Below, one piece after another: positions 1 through 11,769 of a stretch of DNA of 11,769 bases. How positions within the stretch are numbered: position 1 is the first letter of the stretch; each line of letters opens with the position of its first letter. The DNA lies in assembly GCA_045105515.1 (NCBI GenBank), contig JBGCDR010000153.1, forward strand, positions 1 to 11,769. Reading direction: 5' to 3'. The notes beneath the pieces were generated by a model. That model searched no databases and was not told the origin of the DNA. It saw nothing but the letters and a program-made list of their open reading frames with translations. Origin of the DNA: Oligoflexales bacterium (lineage in GTDB: Bacteria > Bdellovibrionota_B > Oligoflexia > Oligoflexales > Bog-1112). A program made the translations under genes and the position numbers.

Positions 1-136
1 GTTTAATCATAGCATGTTGATATTACATATATATTATATGGCGGTTTTTTCTGTTTTTACATCATATCTTTTGCGGTTTCAGTGATTATACATGGAAAGT
101 AGGTGTTAATGGGAGCTTAATCTTCGTCTTGCCAGT
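1..136. repeat. Left arm of a perfect 136-bp inverted repeat bounding the window (possible end of an IS or other repeated element)
   Basis: 1..136 (GTTTAATCATAGCATG...TCTTCGTCTTGCCAGT) is the exact reverse complement of 11632..11767. Identity stops abruptly at 137/11631. No transposase is visible in the window, so the IS interpretation is inference. Confidence 0.97.
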
Positions 137-1344: not shown

Positions 1345-3195
1345 TTAGTCCCTTACTCCCTCTACATAGGCAGTGTAAGGTTTGCCGGTATTAGAATCTA
1401 GATCTCCAGGAATGCGGTAGGTCCTTTTTCCTTTTTTCCAGTTTTCATTAAATCCATCGGTTCTGTGATTGTGGTCAGAGCCAAACCTCCACTTCCCCTT
1501 AATAAAATCCCACTTGTTTTTACAGTTCGGACAAATAACGTAATTGCATTTATCGTCTTTCATGAAAGGTTTATAACAATAAGGGCAAGGCCTTAGGTCA
1601 CTTGCCGGATCGTGCATTTTTTGGCCAAATGGATTTTTAGCAAGATATTTTTTATTATCTTCGTGAGCCTGACAATCGACACCTCGGTGATTCTCTCCGC
1701 AGCTAAAACAATAGGTAGACCCACATAAACACTGATAGTGGCCCTGATTATCACAGTCTATTTCGCGAATTAGGTTAGAACAATTAGGTGTAGAACAGTT
1801 TTTTGCTGTTGGGAACATTTCTTTAAAGTAAGCTATGTATGTTTGGAGTTCGACATCTTCTGTAAATTCTTGTAATCCAAGTTGGTGAATATCTTCTCTT
1901 GAAAAAATTTGTTCAACCCCACAGTGGTCGCAATGCAATGGATAGGCATAATCTTTGATTTGTATCTTTAAACTATCTTTAAGACAGTTGAAACATATCT
2001 TAAAAGGTTGGTCGCCAAACTTGCAATTACTATTCATGCAGCTGTGGGCATTGTGCTGGAAGGGCTCGAAGCATATGGGGCAATCATCATCACCGTTTCC
2101 TTCTGGGTGGGGCATTTTGAGATGCTCAAAGCCTTCAAATAGCTTATAAAAGTGGACCTTAGCAGTGGGAGCAGTATAACTTTCTAAGTCTAGTTTTGGC
2201 AACTGATTGTAAAGAATATTTTGAAGTTTATCCAAGATTTTTTTTTGAACCAAGTACGCAGAGAGTGCATAAATTTTTTGATCATTTATGATTTTTTTAG
2301 CGCTGAGACCTTTGGCATTTCTTTCTTCGAGATTTGCGCCCATACTGATTAGAGCCTTGGCAACACGGTAAGACTTTTGCTCGATGGCTAGATGTAAAAA
2401 GCTTTTTTGTTGCCTATCAACTTTCATACCCCGGTGAATATCTGCTCCATTTAAGATTAACAAGATCGCAATTTGATCGTTTTTTTTTAGCATCGCATTT
2501 TGTAGTGGTGATATGCCATTCACTTGTTGATTTACTTGGGCTCCAAAATTGATTGCAGTTCGCACCAAATCTGAAAGAGAATTTTCTATGGCCCATGATA
2601 GAATGCTGCTATGGGTTTTAGCCATAAAATCTTGAACTTTATTGTATTGTCCTGAATTTAGGATTTCTATGATGGTGTCTTCGCTTTTGTTTCTAAGTGC
2701 ATCTCCGATTTCTTGATAGCCAAAAATATTTTCTAGCTGGATTTTGCTCTCCTCCGAGAATACCTTCCATCCATTATCAAAAATATCTGCTTCTGATTTA
2801 GTGAGTTCTTGGGTTCCGTCGGGGAGGGAGTCAAGATTTTTCAGTAATACATCAAGTGATTGCCAATCATGGTTTTTTAATGAAATATCCCATATTTTTT
2901 CATAATCCGAATTTCGGTCACTCTGCTCACCGTGCTCAATTATAATTTCTACAGACTGTGGATGACGCTTATTTAATGCATATAAAATTGGGCTGATATC
3001 TTTATATGGATGGTGAGAATTGCTTAATTCAGGATTAAGGGATAATAGTTTATTAAGTTTGTGGTGCTTTTTTTTCTTAATATATTTGAAGACTTTGGTT
3101 TGAAGAGTGCTGGAAAAATCAAGACTCCATGCAAAGACATTTTTAGGAAGGCTAATAGATAAAACAATAAAAAACAATGATACTAGAGCCTTCAT
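1345..3195 (-). CDS. Secreted ankyrin-repeat + RING1-IBR-RING2 (RBR) E3 ubiquitin ligase-like protein
   Basis: ORF track gives 1345..3204 (GTG). ATG at 3195 follows an AAGGTG RBS and begins the signal peptide MKALVSLFFIVLSISLPKNVFA|W. Ankyrin repeats: SPILYALNKRHPQSVEIIIEHG, SILSWAIENSLSDLVRTAINFGAQVN, SPLQNAMLKKNDQIAILLILNGADIH, SFLHLAIEQKSYRVAKALISMGANLE. RING1 1921..2082 (CPIC...C..C...CFNCLKDSLKIQIK...CDHC). IBR 1672..1797 (CSTPNC...CLCGSTYCFSCGENHRGVDC). RING2 from 1587 downward (RPCPYCYKPFMKDDKCNYVICPNC). Confidence 0.88.
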   Translation of the reverse strand: MKALVSLFFIVLSISLPKNVFAWSLDFSSTLQTKVFKYIKKKKHHKLNKLLSLNPELSNSHHPYKDISPILYALNKRHPQSVEIIIEHGEQSDRNSDYEKIWDISLKNHDWQSLDVLLKNLDSLPDGTQELTKSEADIFDNGWKVFSEESKIQLENIFGYQEIGDALRNKSEDTIIEILNSGQYNKVQDFMAKTHSSILSWAIENSLSDLVRTAINFGAQVNQQVNGISPLQNAMLKKNDQIAILLILNGADIHRGMKVDRQQKSFLHLAIEQKSYRVAKALISMGANLEERNAKGLSAKKIINDQKIYALSAYLVQKKILDKLQNILYNQLPKLDLESYTAPTAKVHFYKLFEGFEHLKMPHPEGNGDDDCPICFEPFQHNAHSCMNSNCKFGDQPFKICFNCLKDSLKIQIKDYAYPLHCDHCGVEQIFSREDIHQLGLQEFTEDVELQTYIAYFKEMFPTAKNCSTPNCSNLIREIDCDNQGHYQCLCGSTYCFSCGENHRGVDCQAHEDNKKYLAKNPFGQKMHDPASDLRPCPYCYKPFMKDDKCNYVICPNCKNKWDFIKGKWRFGSDHNHRTDGFNENWKKGKRTYRIPGDLDSNTGKPYTAYVEGVRD

Positions 3196-3352
3196 AGCAT
3201 TCACCTTTTATTCCGAATTTTAATAAGTGATTAAATCACGGCTTCTCATTCTTTATAAATTTAATATATTAATTACAATAGATTTGTTGGATATGGATTA
3301 TAGAGATGATTTTTAATAAAATAGCATGGGTTTCTATAAAGCACTTTTTTAA

Positions 3353-6061: not shown

Positions 6062-9000
6062 GTGGAACGATTAGTCAGGTTTTTTATTGAAAATAATCGC
6101 TTAACAATCTTGTTGATGATTTTTTCGGTGGTCACCGGTATCATCGGCGCAACTTCCTTAAATAGGCAAACCTTTCCTTCAGTGGATTTTGCTACCCTCA
6201 TCATTACTACTCCTTATGGGGGAGCGAGTGCTGAAGATATTGAGTTGAAAATTACCAAACCCATAGAAGATGAACTTAAGGCAATCTCGGGATTGAAGGA
6301 TGTAACCTCCACGAGTATGCCTGGTCTCAGCCTTATTAAAGTCCGTATCGATCTCGATGCTCCAAAAAAGAATGAAATTGTTGACGATGTACAAAAAGCC
6401 GTTGATAAGGTTTCTGATTTACCGGTGGACTTAGCCAGTTCGCCACAGATTACAGAACTCAACAGTGATGAAATTTCGGTAGTAGAAATTGGTGTGGTGG
6501 GCCCAAATGATAAAGGCCAGTTAAATCAACTTACGGAAAACTTGAAGGACCAATTAGAGGATATAAAAGGTACCAGTTCAGTAGCGAGTGTTGGTTTTCA
6601 GAAAAGACAATTTCGCATTTACCTCGACAAGGATAAATTAAGTAAATATCACATAGGAATTGACGAAGTTCTCGGGCGTATTCAAGCGAGAAATATCAAT
6701 GTTCCAGGAGGCCTTTTGTCTGAAGTATCAGGGCATAAACTGGTGCGTTTAGATGCAAAGGTGAGCAACCGTGAGGATCTAGCTAAATTATTCATCAGAG
6801 CAAATTTTACTGGAAATAAGATCTATCTTAAAGATGTTGCTGTGGTGGAGGATGCTCGGGAAAAGGCTGAAGTTATGGTTAGCATCAATGGTCAAACAGG
6901 ACACTTGCTTACTGTCACTAAAGCAGCAAGCGCTGATTCGATCGACCTTGCAAAAGATGTTTTGCAGCTCTTAGATTCTGTACAGGCTAAGTGGCCTGAG
7001 CATCAGCTTATTGTGTACCATAACGAAGCACAAAAAATTGACAATAAGCTGTCAAACTTGAGCTCTAATGCAATTTCTGGGTTCATCTTGGTGGTGTTCT
7101 TTTTGATGCTTTTTCTTCCTGGAAAACTAGGATTTATGGCCTCCTTATCACTACCTATCACGGTCCTTCTAACTTTTGCACTGATGCCTTACTTTGGAGC
7201 AACCTTTGATACTATTTCAGTTTTAGCCCTCGTTATTGCACTGGGAATGCTTGTAGATAACTCTGTAGTAGTCACTGAAAATTACACCCGTCTGCTGGGA
7301 ACGGGGCTTGAAAAAAAAGAAGCTGCAGTGGAAGCTGTATCCCAGCTGTGGCTACCAATCAGTGCTACAGTTATGACGACTATCGCGGCGTTCCTCCCCA
7401 TGATGGTGACAAAAGGAGTGATGGGTGAATTTATTAGATTTATTCCGGTGGTCGTGAGTATCTCGCTCCTCGTAAGTTTGTTGGAATCCTTCTTTCTTTT
7501 ACCCTTAAGGCTACAGATATCGGGAAAATTAAAACAATCTGCAAGTGGTGAACCCGTAGATTGGTTTCATGCAGTCCGTTCGAAATTTGAAGGTTTTATG
7601 GGCTATTGTCTTAGATTTCGCTATTTGGTCGCCATAATTTTTGGTCTGATGATTGGGGGGTCTATCGCTTTAACCATTTGGGGCAATAAGTTTATTCTTT
7701 TTCCCCCTGGGGATACTGAAAGGTATGTTGCCCGTTATGAACTTAAGAGTGGGACTCCTGTTGATAAAACTTATTTAGAGTCGCAAAAACTCGTCAAAAA
7801 AATACAAATGGTACTTGCTGATGATGTGGAAAGCATCATCAATAAAGCTGGAGATGGGCAATTTAACCTGATGGATTCTAAAGGTACGAAAGGAGAACAA
7901 AGTGGTCTGGTTATGATAAACCTCACCACTGAAGCAGCGAAAACAAGCAAACATGAGGAAATACTTGCTAAGTTGAGGACTATTGATACGGGATCTTTTC
8001 AAGATTTGCGATTTGAGGCAGAAGTTAATGGACCTCCTGTTGGCTCAGCAATAAAGGTAACATTTAGATCACCTGATTCAGAGCAATTAGAGGGAATGAC
8101 CACACTTATAATGGAACAAGCTGCTAAAATACCGGGAATCTTAAACCTCAAGTTTGCTGAGCAAGCTGGAGGTACGGAGCTTTGGGCGGATTTCGATTAC
8201 GATAAGATTGCTAGGCTTGGGCTAGATGTGGGAGCAATAGGCAATACTGTAAGAACAGCATTAGAAGGAAGTGAGGTTTCCAATGTTGTACTAAATAATA
8301 AGGTGGTAAAAATTAAAGTAGAGCTTAAGGAAGAACAGAAAAGGAATATTGCCCAGATCATGGGGCTTAAGGTTATGGATAAAAAAGGTAACTTGATCCC
8401 TCTCGCAAAGCTGCTGTCCTTTGAGAAAAAACCAGGATCAAAAAATATCAAACATTTTGACTATCAACGTTCGCGAACTTTGGTAGGAGATGTCAACACG
8501 GAAAATACGACCAGCCAGCTTGCAAATGATAGGCTTAAGAATCTTTTCTGGGCTCAGTCCGCACAGTTTCCTCTTGTGAGCTATACAGTGGGAGGTGAAG
8601 AGGAAAGTACTAAAGAATCAATGGAATCTCTAGTTATTGCAATGGGTCTTGCGCTTTTAGGAATTTTTTCCTTGCTTGTGTTTTTGTTTAAATCCTATTT
8701 GCGGCCTGCAATCATAATGCTTTGTATACCATTTGGGTTTATAGGTTATGCCGTTGCCTTCTATTTTCATCAACTACCTGTGAGCTTTCTTTCATTGATT
8801 GGAATGGTGGGTTTGTCTGGTATTGTTGTAAATTCAGGTATTGTGTTGATTAGTTTTATTGACCAAATGCGCCTTGAAGGTTATATGTCGCTCAATGAAC
8901 TACTGAAGAAGGCAAGTGGTATGCGGCTTAAGGCTGTTTTGGTCACAAGTTTAACTACTTTTAGTGGTCTCATTCCCACGGCTTATGGATTAGGGGGTTC

Positions 9001-9232
9001 AGACCCAATGTTGATACCCATGACCATGGCGATGGCTTGGGGGCTTGCAAGTGGGACGTTTTTTACCTTAGTATGGGTGCCATGCGGTTATGCTATTTTA
9101 GAGGATATGTTCTGTCTAACTAAAAATGTACGCGCGTGGTTGAGGCCTGGAAGCACAGCTGTCTTTGGTGATGGTTCAAAAAAGGCGATTCTAAAAGATC
9201 AGGGCAAGGTAGCTTCACAACTCCCAGGTTAG
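6062..9232 (+). CDS. RND efflux transporter permease subunit (AcrB/AcrD/AcrF family)
   Basis: 1056 aa with the (1 TM + periplasmic domain + 5 TM) x2 layout. Motifs YGGASAEDIELKITKPIE, TM4 ALGMLVDNSVVVTEN, TTIAAFLPM, GIVVNSGIVL, RLKAVLVTSLTTFSGLIP. GTG start with AAGGAGG RBS at 6049..6055. Confidence 0.96.
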   Translation: MERLVRFFIENNRLTILLMIFSVVTGIIGATSLNRQTFPSVDFATLIITTPYGGASAEDIELKITKPIEDELKAISGLKDVTSTSMPGLSLIKVRIDLDAPKKNEIVDDVQKAVDKVSDLPVDLASSPQITELNSDEISVVEIGVVGPNDKGQLNQLTENLKDQLEDIKGTSSVASVGFQKRQFRIYLDKDKLSKYHIGIDEVLGRIQARNINVPGGLLSEVSGHKLVRLDAKVSNREDLAKLFIRANFTGNKIYLKDVAVVEDAREKAEVMVSINGQTGHLLTVTKAASADSIDLAKDVLQLLDSVQAKWPEHQLIVYHNEAQKIDNKLSNLSSNAISGFILVVFFLMLFLPGKLGFMASLSLPITVLLTFALMPYFGATFDTISVLALVIALGMLVDNSVVVTENYTRLLGTGLEKKEAAVEAVSQLWLPISATVMTTIAAFLPMMVTKGVMGEFIRFIPVVVSISLLVSLLESFFLLPLRLQISGKLKQSASGEPVDWFHAVRSKFEGFMGYCLRFRYLVAIIFGLMIGGSIALTIWGNKFILFPPGDTERYVARYELKSGTPVDKTYLESQKLVKKIQMVLADDVESIINKAGDGQFNLMDSKGTKGEQSGLVMINLTTEAAKTSKHEEILAKLRTIDTGSFQDLRFEAEVNGPPVGSAIKVTFRSPDSEQLEGMTTLIMEQAAKIPGILNLKFAEQAGGTELWADFDYDKIARLGLDVGAIGNTVRTALEGSEVSNVVLNNKVVKIKVELKEEQKRNIAQIMGLKVMDKKGNLIPLAKLLSFEKKPGSKNIKHFDYQRSRTLVGDVNTENTTSQLANDRLKNLFWAQSAQFPLVSYTVGGEEESTKESMESLVIAMGLALLGIFSLLVFLFKSYLRPAIIMLCIPFGFIGYAVAFYFHQLPVSFLSLIGMVGLSGIVVNSGIVLISFIDQMRLEGYMSLNELLKKASGMRLKAVLVTSLTTFSGLIPTAYGLGGSDPMLIPMTMAMAWGLASGTFFTLVWVPCGYAILEDMFCLTKNVRAWLRPGSTAVFGDGSKKAILKDQGKVASQLPG

Positions 9233-9253
9233 TGTTTGTATAGGGTTTTTATA

Positions 9254-9883
9254 ATGCAGAGTGTTGTCGATACAAAAACAAAGATTCTTCAGGCAGCTTT
9301 CAAATTGTTTTCCGATAATGGCTTTGAAGGCACCTCGATGCGAGAAATTGCAAAACAAGCTACAGTTAATTTATCTGCAATTAACTATCATTTTCAGAGT
9401 AAGGAAAAGCTCTGTAGCGAAGTTTTAAATAAGGCAGGGTATGATTTAAGGGAAGAGTTAAAGGAGATCGCTGAAAACCATCCTGACTTAAGGTTTGTCG
9501 AACTAGTCCCTGAGGTTTACCAACACCTTGTGAGTATTTCAGACCGATTTCAGTCATGTTTTCGCATCTTGTCGACTGGTAACGTGGTGCTTGACCTTAG
9601 CTCAGATGTGGATGGTCAAATGGGTGGAGGGCCAGGTGCGCAGTATTTGATGGAAAGGTTGACCAAAGAAGTTGGGGATCAAGTTCCCTTCGAAGATCGT
9701 TGCTGGGTTGTGAATGCAGTATATTGTCAAATGACCCACCTTATCTTACTCTGTAATACTAGCATTGCGCAGATGGAATATGTCAAAGCACAATTTGAAA
9801 CTGAAAAAGTGCAGCATAGACTCCGGAGGCTTTGCCAAGCTCTCGTGCGTGAAATTACTGATCCAATTGAAATGATTCATTAA
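9254..9883 (+). CDS. TetR/AcrR family transcriptional regulator
   Basis: N-terminal HTH TKTKILQAAFKLFSDNGFEGTSMREIAKQATVNLSAINYHFQSKEKL. ATG 9254 is preferred to the TTG at 9236. Confidence 0.95.
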   Translation: MQSVVDTKTKILQAAFKLFSDNGFEGTSMREIAKQATVNLSAINYHFQSKEKLCSEVLNKAGYDLREELKEIAENHPDLRFVELVPEVYQHLVSISDRFQSCFRILSTGNVVLDLSSDVDGQMGGGPGAQYLMERLTKEVGDQVPFEDRCWVVNAVYCQMTHLILLCNTSIAQMEYVKAQFETEKVQHRLRRLCQALVREITDPIEMIH

Positions 9884-10758
9884 GAACGACTTAACAGTTG
9901 GTTGGGCAGACTCCTAATCAAATTTAAGCTTTCCCAGGTGCCTGTATACTGATGGTCTAAAATGGTGTTGCGGGCAAAAATCGGAACTTTTTTAAAGCTA
10001 ACAACTTTGATGGACAGATGAAATGTATGCTGGCCTTTGATATTGTAGTAAAAGTTGATGGTGCGTCCACCCACCGAGTTTTTGTTGGGAGTAATATCAT
10101 ATTTTCCAGAGCTTGTGGTGGTGATTCGTTCTAGTGGTAGAGGAATACTCCCAGCTATTTCGGTCCAGGTGGACTCCATGTTAATCGGAACCTCAGCACC
10201 AAGAAAGCTATCTAAATCCTCATAAATCTTTACACTCACTCTGGTTTCAATGGATGCGAGTTTGATTCCTAATATTTTAATTTTAGTCAGAGTGCTAACT
10301 TGCAAATTTTTTCGGTCAATAGATTGAACGGTGGTACCATTAAAAGCACAATCGAGGTAGCTTGAGGTCAAAAAATGCTTACGGCTAAAAAATTTTGGTA
10401 GTCTATTTTGGTAGATGATTGCAGACTTTCCCAAAGTTAAAAATCCTGAATCTAAGTCAGTATCTAGATGTAACCTGTCAATATCCCAGTCTGCAAAGTC
10501 TCCGAGATTTTCCGGATAAAACTCCTCAAGAGCCATTTGCATCTTGCCCTTGCTTAACCAATGAATATCGGGAAAAAATTCTAGGAGCGGCTCTTTCTTG
10601 ATCTGTTTATGATGAAAGTTAACTCCCACAGATTTTTTTACATCCATTCTTTTTTGGAGGAATTCGTAAATTTCGTTAGCGTTAGATTCGCCTGTGAGAA
10701 TACATACCATAATTAAAAAGATTGATAGTTTTAGACAATTTTTTTCCCATACCATCAT
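9880..10758 (-). CDS. Secreted hypothetical protein
   Basis: 292-aa ORF with an AGGAG RBS upstream and a signal-peptide-like N-terminus (KLSIFLIMVCILTGESNA|NE). Its stop overlaps the TetR stop (TTAA 9880..9883). No family recognised. Confidence 0.8.
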   Translation of the reverse strand: MMVWEKNCLKLSIFLIMVCILTGESNANEIYEFLQKRMDVKKSVGVNFHHKQIKKEPLLEFFPDIHWLSKGKMQMALEEFYPENLGDFADWDIDRLHLDTDLDSGFLTLGKSAIIYQNRLPKFFSRKHFLTSSYLDCAFNGTTVQSIDRKNLQVSTLTKIKILGIKLASIETRVSVKIYEDLDSFLGAEVPINMESTWTEIAGSIPLPLERITTTSSGKYDITPNKNSVGGRTINFYYNIKGQHTFHLSIKVVSFKKVPIFARNTILDHQYTGTWESLNLIRSLPNQLLSRS

Positions 10759-10886
10759 TTCGGTTTACTCCTTTTTAAATTTTTATAACATTAGCCATTA
10801 ATTGGTAAACCATGTCAAAAAAAAAAGATCTAGTTAATTTTAGCTTTATTAAAAACTATGGCCTATAATTTTTTATTGAACTGGAG

Positions 10887-11080
10887 GCGATTTATCCGTT
10901 CGTATGACTCAGTCGAAATGACAGTTTGTGATGATAATTGGTTTTTAATGTTATCCCTCGGCTGCGCTCTCGGGATAACATTGGAGGCTCCTCTTTTATA
11001 GTCTGAGTGATGAGATTTTTGTCGACGGATCAGAGGCATCTACTGTCATCCCGACGGAGCGGAGCGAGTGGAGGGATCCC
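10887..11080. repeat. Cluster of three REP-like (TGTC/CGTC-tagged type) palindromic units
   Basis: 10887..10926 aligns without gaps (25/40) to the reverse complement of 11041..11080 (TACTGTCATCCCGACGGAGCGGAGCGAGTGGAGGGATCCC). The middle unit 10947..10982 (ATCCCTCGGCTGCGCTCTCGGGATAACA) forms a perfect 11-bp stem AATGTTATCCC/GGGATAACATT. Confidence 0.7.
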
Positions 11081-11097
11081 TAGCAATAAATTAAGCT

Positions 11098-11589
11098 TCA
11101 AAAAGATTCTTCATTCAGGATTTTTTCTATCACCTTCTCTGATATTTCCTCGGAAACTACACTCCAAGTTTGCTCTGATTCATTAAACTCTAAGAACCTA
11201 ATTTTCTCTTCCTTTAGTATGCTGAGGATATCTTTAACAATGTGGGCTTTGTTTTTTTTATCAAGAGTTTGATAAATAAATCGATTTGCTACAATCCGAT
11301 TTATAAATTTTGAATTCCCGGGATGTTTATTCGTTTTAAAATATTTCCCGATAACAATGTCATTCTCAGTACATTTGATTGGATCTGTGAAAAATTCGCA
11401 GAAAGGTAAAGCTTCGTCTTGATTGAGATTGAGTAACGGAGGTAATTCAAAATTATTATTGCTGACATCATTAAATGCATCTTTTTCAATCAAATCATCA
11501 AATGATCTTTCATGAACAATTTCTGGAAATGGAGAGGAAAAACAAACAGTAGAAACCGAAATTTGAGTAATCAAGTAAAAGATTTTCAT
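11098..11589 (-). CDS. Secreted protein with a C-terminal DUF6824-like (diatom/stramenopile-type) domain
   Basis: GAGG RBS and a signal-peptide-like N-terminus MKIFYLITQISVSTVCFS. Residues 74-160 (ENDIVIGK...NKHPGNSKFINRI...Y...DKKNKAHIVKDILSIL....RFL.......WSVVSEE) match the recalled pattern DVLxGRG..NxHPGNxxFRxxI...Y....K..I..xI...GRFL....W.EV. Match is by eye. Confidence 0.7.
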   Translation of the reverse strand: MKIFYLITQISVSTVCFSSPFPEIVHERSFDDLIEKDAFNDVSNNNFELPPLLNLNQDEALPFCEFFTDPIKCTENDIVIGKYFKTNKHPGNSKFINRIVANRFIYQTLDKKNKAHIVKDILSILKEEKIRFLEFNESEQTWSVVSEEISEKVIEKILNEESF

Positions 11590-11631
11590 AAGCGCCTCAT
11601 TATATAGTTTAAAGAAAGGATGAGATATTTA

Positions 11632-11767
11632 ACTGGCAAGACGAAGATTAAGCTCCCATTAACACCTACTTTCCATGTATAATCACTGAAACCGCAAAAG
11701 ATATGATGTAAAAACAGAAAAAACCGCCATATAATATATATGTAATATCAACATGCTATGATTAAAC
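11632..11767. repeat. Right arm of the 136-bp inverted repeat (probably continues to 11769 and beyond)
   Basis: Exact reverse complement of 1..136. It begins ACTGGCAAGACGAAGATTAAGCTCCC, 42 bp upstream of the start codon at 11589. Confidence 0.97.
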
Positions 11768-11769
11768 GA

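Follow-up and report, generated by a model that had tools for sequence, protein, structure and literature searches.

A DUF6824 domain typical of diatoms in a family of predicted exported proteins of an Oligoflexales bacterium

How does a protein domain that is characteristic of diatoms come to stand behind an export signal in a bacterium, and what might it do there? This question is raised by a short gene at positions 11098 to 11589 on the minus strand of a contig from an Oligoflexales genome. The window, i.e. the whole stretch of DNA analyzed here, is 11,769 nt long and represents the complete contig C153 of a metagenome bin of 6.29 Mb in 461 contigs, with a completeness of 90.9% and an estimated contamination of 4.8%. 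Most likely, the domain was acquired from a eukaryote and is used outside the bacterial cell, as we infer from the distribution of the family and the layout of its bacterial members. That the gene belongs to a horizontally acquired family of Sec-exported, eukaryote-like effectors is a reading to which we give moderate credence.

According to the ORF list, the sequence and the Pfam search, the gene (11098..11589, minus strand) encodes a DUF6824 protein of 163 amino acids, the range including the TGA stop codon at 11098-11100. It is intronless and starts with the first ATG of its open frame. A Shine-Dalgarno-like GAGG (11595..11598, minus strand), read from the sequence without a statistical test, is located 5 nt upstream of this ATG. 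Scans of the region 10700-11769 yielded no terminator sites and 2 promoter sites versus 4.4 expected, and Rfam models gave no matches in the whole window. None of the sequencing runs listed as containing DNA of the window was an RNA run.

Three parts of the protein can be distinguished. Codons 1-20 (11530..11589, minus strand) specify the signal-peptide-like N-terminus MKIFYLITQISVSTVCFSSP, which aligns with the N-termini of the paralogues and comprises K2, a hydrophobic core and the small residues C-F-S-S, followed by P20. The best 12-residue Kyte-Doolittle mean of this N-terminus is 1.67, the weakest hydrophobicity of a signal core in its family, yet above the 95th percentile of 141 eukaryote-like hits (1.37; median 0.24). 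A signal-peptide-like N-terminus had been proposed from the sequence alone, and this comparison is in line with it; cleavage of the signal and its cleavage site are predicted. Codons 21-71 (11377..11529, minus strand) form the acidic linker that the same sequence-only reading had described. Its residues 22-72 carry a net charge of -9 with a pI of 4.05, and it is predicted to be disordered, the pLDDT being below 50 at residues 9-67 of the full-length AlphaFold2 model (residues 1-67 were likewise given as below 50). The DUF6824 domain occupies codons 72-160 (11110..11376, minus strand), as delimited by the Pfam match and the AlphaFold2 model. A reading as lipoprotein was rejected, since C16 is preceded by S-T-V, which does not fit the lipobox consensus, and the paralogues are devoid of that cysteine.

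PF20710 (DUF6824) was the sole Pfam-A family matching the protein (E 4.7e-14, 53 bits versus a gathering cut-off of 27 bits). The match covers residues 77-153 and profile positions 1-78 of 84, and thus falls within the stretch of residues ~74-160 for which the domain had been anticipated. A six-frame search of the genome placed the same family at 11131-11361 on the minus strand with 54.4 bits. All residues of the ordered motif set listed earlier were present in the sequence, namely D77-I-V-I-G81-K-Y, H89-P-G-N92, F95, Y106, R131-F-L133 and W142, including the replacement of GRG by GKY. In an alignment of 41 sequences, eight columns were conserved to at least 90% (D, G, H, G, N, R, F, and an A in the last helix). 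The window copy keeps seven of these (D77, G81, H89, G91, N92, R131, F132) and has S150 instead of the alanine. The GRG following the first strand, represented here by G81-K82-Y83, is common in most DUF6824 hits and stays below 90% conservation. It is also missing from several paralogues, which show GGG, GSN, NEN or NTD at this site, and hence it is no strict requirement of the family.

The domains differ considerably in charge. Eukaryotic DUF6824 domains are basic, with a median pI of 9.8 (353 domains), whereas the window domain has a net charge of 0 and a pI between about 6.9 and 8.0, which varies with the domain limits chosen. The latter takes an intermediate position among bacterial copies, whose pI values are 9.75 (paralogue C282a), 10.2 (P0141, from another assembly), 5.2 (paralogue C435) and 5.0-6.1 (P0048, also from another assembly). 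This spread fits diversification after acquisition. As the window copy is near neutral and carries K-Y for R-G, it may act unlike the basic eukaryotic domains. The suggestion that a basic domain together with the acidic region mimics a nucleic-acid-binding regulator of the host is weakened by this result.

An AlphaFold2 model of residues 69-163, built from the 41-sequence alignment, reached a pLDDT of 93.5 and a pTM of 0.84. The modelled elements follow the order strand, short helix, three helices, beta-hairpin and C-terminal helix. A structure search in the ESM Atlas, with predicted models on both sides, gave a TM of 0.52 over residues 68-162 to a cluster of which 98% are PF20710 members. Searches among solved structures were less productive. 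By sequence, the best PDB hit had an E of only 0.34. Foldseek found nothing in the PDB at E<=0.001 (best TM 0.35), and VIA-align against 48,161 chains resulted in a best Z of 5.2 (8k42_A), which is inside the stated background range. Viral structures in BFVD also gave nothing at E<=0.001. Judged from the predicted model, the fold of the DUF6824 domain appears to match no solved structure, these searches being no proof of a new fold.

The gene is a member of a sizeable family in its own genome. The PF20710 model yielded 8 domain matches, 5 of them above the cut-off, in 7 ORFs. A profile made from the domains of this genome detected 11 loci among 19,401 stop-to-stop ORFs, of which 4 were new to that profile (C138, E 4.1e-14; C41, 2.6e-12; C335, 9.5e-9; C132, 3.9e-8). 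A paralogue count had been suggested as a check, and about 11 DUF6824 loci are its outcome. Nine of the 11 loci open with MK, a hydrophobic stretch and (F/L)-A-S-like small residues. Behind the N-terminal consensus of the paralogues, MKxxIxFxLxFxxSxxFASP, lies a short linker, which is acidic in most cases. Judged by sequence comparison, these loci are best described as a lineage-specific expansion of a diatom-type domain. Two other searches recovered little of it: a word-based search with the single window protein returned only the self match, and P0002 was the one paralogue to emerge when longer proteins were sought with a profile. Two loci are damaged, one of them a fragment (C41). The other, C335, has a domain that ends early, past the RFLEF strand, and therefore probably is a truncated copy. 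In this C335 paralogue (G000:C335 7757-8206, plus strand) the linker consists of a run of Ser-Asp and Gly-Ser repeats, (SD)n.

Outside this genome, the domain is rare in bacteria as far as the searches reach. Among 41 relatives as well as among 131 phylum genomes, sets that both include the own genome, PF20710 was detected in just 1. When 185,579 species, each represented by one genome, were scanned twice for patterns, 201 and 34 pattern matches were obtained, none of which was confirmed; a blank in these scans is weak evidence, because near-exact patterns of 7-10 residues were needed. The view that the family is atypical of bacteria agrees with these counts. Among viral contigs, 32 pattern matches and no confirmed case were obtained. 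Metagenome contigs contributed 7 loci with 25-36% identity on contigs of 1.7-4.2 kb.

An exhaustive profile search retrieved 13,804 cluster representatives at E<=1e-3. Among the 150 matches listed of these, 9 were short and signal-bearing, 5 of them from the own genome and 4 from other assemblies. The latter (P0141, P0048, P0015, P0017) derive from metagenome assemblies with contigs of up to 60,858 nt, and all four show the N-terminal signal pattern. Two of them closely resemble the window protein. P0141 (157 aa) and P0048 (248 aa) are likewise built from a signal, an acidic linker and the domain, with whole-protein identities to the window protein of 41% and 35%, respectively, and each of the two trees places them as sisters of the window domain. 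The domains of the window protein and P0141 share 41-46% identity. P0141 differs in that it keeps GRG and is basic (pI 10.2), while P0048 differs in having two domains.

The remaining 141 of the 150 matches listed are mostly long proteins with 2-8 tandem domains, and 135 of these 141 have no hydrophobic N-terminus. Organism names were available for 8 hits, from 30 proteins looked up and 16 rows of one search table, and all 8 were diatoms: Nitzschia sp. Nitz4 (3), Nitzschia inconspicua, Seminavis robusta, Leptocylindrus aporus, Amphora coffeaeformis and a JGI 'Psemu1' model, which we take to be Pseudo-nitzschia. The neighbours found in the ESM Atlas by features and by structure were DUF6824 clusters which were 100% eukaryotic, with Bacillariophyta as the commonest group. 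The assumption of a diatom-dominated family is thereby supported. No literature naming DUF6824, PF20710 or its motif words was found.

The diatom proteins, such as those of Nitzschia inconspicua (KAG7353295.1, P0006) and Nitzschia sp. Nitz4 (EP00934_P006785, P0004), have the same domain and share the D, G, HxGN, RF(L) and W with the window protein. They are 300-1700 aa long and contain 2-8 tandem domains, low-complexity spacers and NLS-like basic patches, and they are devoid of a signal peptide. In contrast, the window protein of 163 aa combines a signal-peptide-like N-terminus with an acidic tether and one near-neutral domain that has GKY for GRG. Pfam searches with 63 eukaryote-like hits found DUF6824 alone, except for one HSF DNA-binding domain (5.8e-21) and one BED zinc finger (9.4e-7). 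Several eukaryotic DUF6824 proteins end in KKRAR-like patches, and one Seminavis protein of the family carries the name polyubiquitin fragment. These features provide hints that eukaryotic DUF6824 may be a nuclear module linked to nucleic acid or chromatin. Nucleic acid or chromatin is likewise hinted at as the ligand of the eukaryotic copies, whose basic charge is lost in the window copy.

In the mechanism that we propose, transfer from a diatom-like eukaryote would have started the family, an export signal would then have been fitted, and duplication to about 11 loci would have come after. The protein would be exported via Sec, possibly followed by passage through a type II secretion system, and would meet a eukaryotic host or prey cell. 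There, the domain would stand in for, or compete with, the DUF6824 proteins of the host at their binding partners. A diatom target, delivery to the host, the ligand and export beyond the periplasm are the parts of this scheme that we infer.

Eukaryote-like genes in host-associated bacteria are already well known as a general principle. The eukaryote-like effectors of intracellular bacteria, for instance the F-box, ankyrin and U-box proteins of Legionella, are a comparable case: their domains are likewise mainly eukaryotic, patchily distributed in bacteria and multiplied in one host-associated lineage. The DUF6824 family is found in a similar setting, with F-box, ankyrin and RBR-like genes nearby. 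Such effectors of intracellular bacteria use type IV or type III signals. The family described here differs from them by a predicted N-terminal Sec-type signal, and it resides in a genome that encodes two GspD-type secretins above the curated cut-off, while neither TssC nor a type III secretion secretin above the cut-off was found in the genome scan.

Closer in taxonomy are the FD111-like Oligoflexales, which belong to the same order and have a life cycle inside a stramenopile alga, where exported proteins would meet the contents of the host (PMC12865303). According to this report of 2026, such bacteria attach to, enter and consume the alga Nannochloropsis, and recent work connects Oligoflexales with the crash of algal cultures (PMC12865303). 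It gives no effector genes, and the host it names is Nannochloropsis and not a diatom (PMC12865303).

Several DUF6824 genes of the genome are accompanied by other genes with a eukaryotic appearance. A protein with two HA (helicase-associated, PF03457) domains (E 1.4e-36) and a signal-like N-terminus is encoded on contig C282 (G000:C282 11714-12358, corresponding to L006 1785-2429, plus strand). Further predicted exported proteins with two HA domains are encoded on C41 (345-968) and C188, and two of the three genes lie directly downstream of a DUF6824 gene. Since the pairing occurs on both C282 and C41, both genes were apparently duplicated together. Of the 131 phylum genomes, 4 contained HA domains. 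On contig C402, an F-box protein of 291 aa (L003 95-970, plus strand, on G000:C402) with a signal-peptide-like N-terminus was identified at an E of 1.4e-4, just above the Pfam cut-off; its gene is located upstream of a two-domain DUF6824 gene. The window itself contains, at 1345-3204 on the minus strand, a gene for a protein of 619 aa with a signal-peptide-like N-terminus, Ank_2 (E 6.5e-13) and an IBR half-RING (E 3.8e-6), which looks like a eukaryote-like RBR-type ubiquitin ligase.

If the reading of an effector family applies, its members would help to trace the eukaryote on which this uncultured Oligoflexales lineage lives or preys. Few domains have multiplied in diatoms as strongly as DUF6824 (13,804 cluster representatives), a domain without known function, and the small single-domain bacterial copies are compact enough to lend themselves to work on its structure and binding. 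Export by a bacterium would suggest that DUF6824 is important enough in the host to be worth mimicking. A more specific picture, which we put forward as speculation and hold to be rather doubtful, is that of a bacterium which parasitizes diatoms or preys on them, perhaps on benthic raphid pennates such as the Nitzschia, Amphora and Seminavis species that dominate the named hits. Such a bacterium would have captured a nuclear or chromatin module, added a Sec signal and an acidic tether, and produced about eleven exported mimics or decoys of host DUF6824. No effector family directed at diatoms would have been known before, and one of the largest uncharacterised domain families of diatoms would for the first time become accessible to experiments.

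Among the competing explanations, service in the bacterium's own periplasm or envelope, with the eukaryotic look being irrelevant to the present role, survives best and nevertheless appears unlikely to us. A Sec-type signal by itself leads only to the periplasm, the neighbouring genes are related to the envelope (RND pump, outer-membrane factor and another exported protein), and the window copy is free of the basic charge of the eukaryotic domains, all of which is in line with such a role. On the other hand, a family that none of the other 130 phylum genomes shares, not even the one of the same genus, would be unusual for an envelope function, and its paralogues adjoin other exported eukaryote-like proteins (HA, F-box).

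It could also be argued that the window copy arose by duplication and now drifts, with hardly any function left or none. The change of GRG to GKY, the serine at consensus position A150, the neutral charge and the weak signal would be expected of such a copy, and two other loci (the C41 fragment and the truncated C335) are clearly damaged. However, the frame is intact, the most conserved columns are kept with one exception, and the model of the domain is confident. Moreover, domain identity and layout are shared with P0141 from another assembly. We regard decay of this copy as improbable.

Part of the effector reading is that the domain moved from a eukaryote into the bacterium. In a FastTree phylogeny of 368 domains, the window domain joined P0048 (support 99) and P0141 (96), and these three were placed inside an all-bacterial clade of 7 (support 96). 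The 15 bacterial domains formed 4 groups in this tree, compared to 14.8 expected from shuffled labels. In an IQ-TREE analysis of 87 rows, the bacterial domains needed 3 changes. A single clade of all 17 bacterial domains was not rejected (AU p 0.81), and its likelihood was above that of the free search. One acquisition followed by duplication is a possible history, as far as such comparisons of sequences go. With about 95 columns and no root, the phylogeny is poorly resolved, and the direction of transfer is read from the distribution alone. Acquisition from a diatom, as claimed by the sequence-only reading, is thus consistent with where the family occurs, while its direction is not given by the tree.

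The opposite course would be an origin of DUF6824 in bacteria such as this one, entry into a diatom ancestor and expansion there. Diatom genomes contain many genes of bacterial origin, and since all 17 bacterial domains can sit on one side of a branch, the position of the root is open, which leaves room for this scenario. It fits poorly with the distribution, as those of the 13,804 representatives that were inspected are overwhelmingly eukaryote-like, the bacterial carriers are limited to one of 131 phylum genomes and four metagenomic proteins, and the species-genome pattern scans found none, though at low sensitivity. A transfer into diatoms appears to us about as improbable as decay of the window copy, and transfer from a eukaryote is the direction retained here.

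Finally, the surroundings of the gene bear on whether it is bacterial at all. Besides the gene of an RND pump (ACR_tran, E 2e-169), the contig carries genes for a TetR regulator, an acyltransferase and an outer-membrane factor. The neighbour of the DUF6824 gene (9880..10758, minus strand) encodes a protein of 292 aa with a signal-peptide-like N-terminus and no Pfam family, which shares 72% amino acid identity with G001:C295 1873-2754 of a genome of the same genus. At the nucleotide level, this contig of G001 aligns to window positions 9068-10842 with 72% identity, and TetR is 83% identical to its G001 counterpart at the protein level. Positions 10759..10842 (no strand assigned) are the last stretch that aligns, the synteny ending at 10842. 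Beyond this point G001 has a spacer of about 730 bp followed by a LuxR-type response regulator, and no remnant of DUF6824 was detected in this genome (tblastn E above 2, HMM E above 0.4). As G001 is 94% complete and has no copy, the DUF6824 family is no stable trait of the genus.

The composition of the DUF6824 contigs is inconspicuous, with a GC content of 35.6-39.6% versus a mean of 38.3% and an ordinary tetranucleotide composition. Three per-run assemblies join the gene to the neighbouring bacterial genes with 0 differences; the three runs that fully contain the locus belong to a single study, from which the DNA of the window may itself have been derived. Two contigs of 11,547 nt from separate runs cover 9000-11640 at even depth, again with 0 differences. 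The only sample label seen was 'plant metagenome', with no label of a diatom culture. The marine run X4 contributed just two 151-nt pieces of the neighbouring gene and is uninformative on the DUF6824 gene, because its coverage is limited to that neighbour.

The contig ends in a repeat. According to blastn against the genome, positions 11632..11769 (no strand assigned) represent the end of a multi-copy repeat, which extends from a point 43 nt upstream of the start codon to the contig end. The same 136-nt repeat is found in inverted orientation at window positions 1-136, at the opposite end of the contig. A further 28 contigs contain copies of 130-148 nt with 97-100% identity, almost always in a terminal position, and the repeat-bearing contigs include the DUF6824 contigs C402 and C41. 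The repeat probably is the end of an unassembled multi-copy mobile element. Misbinning or misjoining of eukaryotic DNA, for which only the nature of the genome as a metagenome bin with some estimated contamination and the terminal repeat could be quoted, was rejected as extremely improbable on grounds of typical composition, the bacterial pump, regulator and acyltransferase genes on the contig, synteny reaching 84 nt past the neighbouring gene, the continuity of the per-run contigs across gene and neighbours, and an intronless gene whose bacterial-type signal is unlike its eukaryotic relatives. The window gene is a real bacterial gene for a DUF6824 protein.

Some further observations concern the remainder of the contig. 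The RND pump (6062-9232, plus strand) shows 47% identity to its best match in G001 and also to a paralogue on contig C113 of its own genome; as the G001 contig breaks inside the pump gene, the true orthologue may be unassembled. An ORF of 209 aa at 117-746 on the minus strand has one hydrophobic segment, a long acidic, repetitive region rich in Ser, Thr and Glu, and no Pfam family. In the spacer downstream of the DUF6824 gene, a stretch of 34 nt (11045-11078) is found again with 94% identity in G001:C21, and runs X1 and X2 contain it in small contigs of low depth; parts of 10885-10941 and 11037-11081 are repeated in four other contigs of the genome. These sequences look like short dispersed intergenic repeats.
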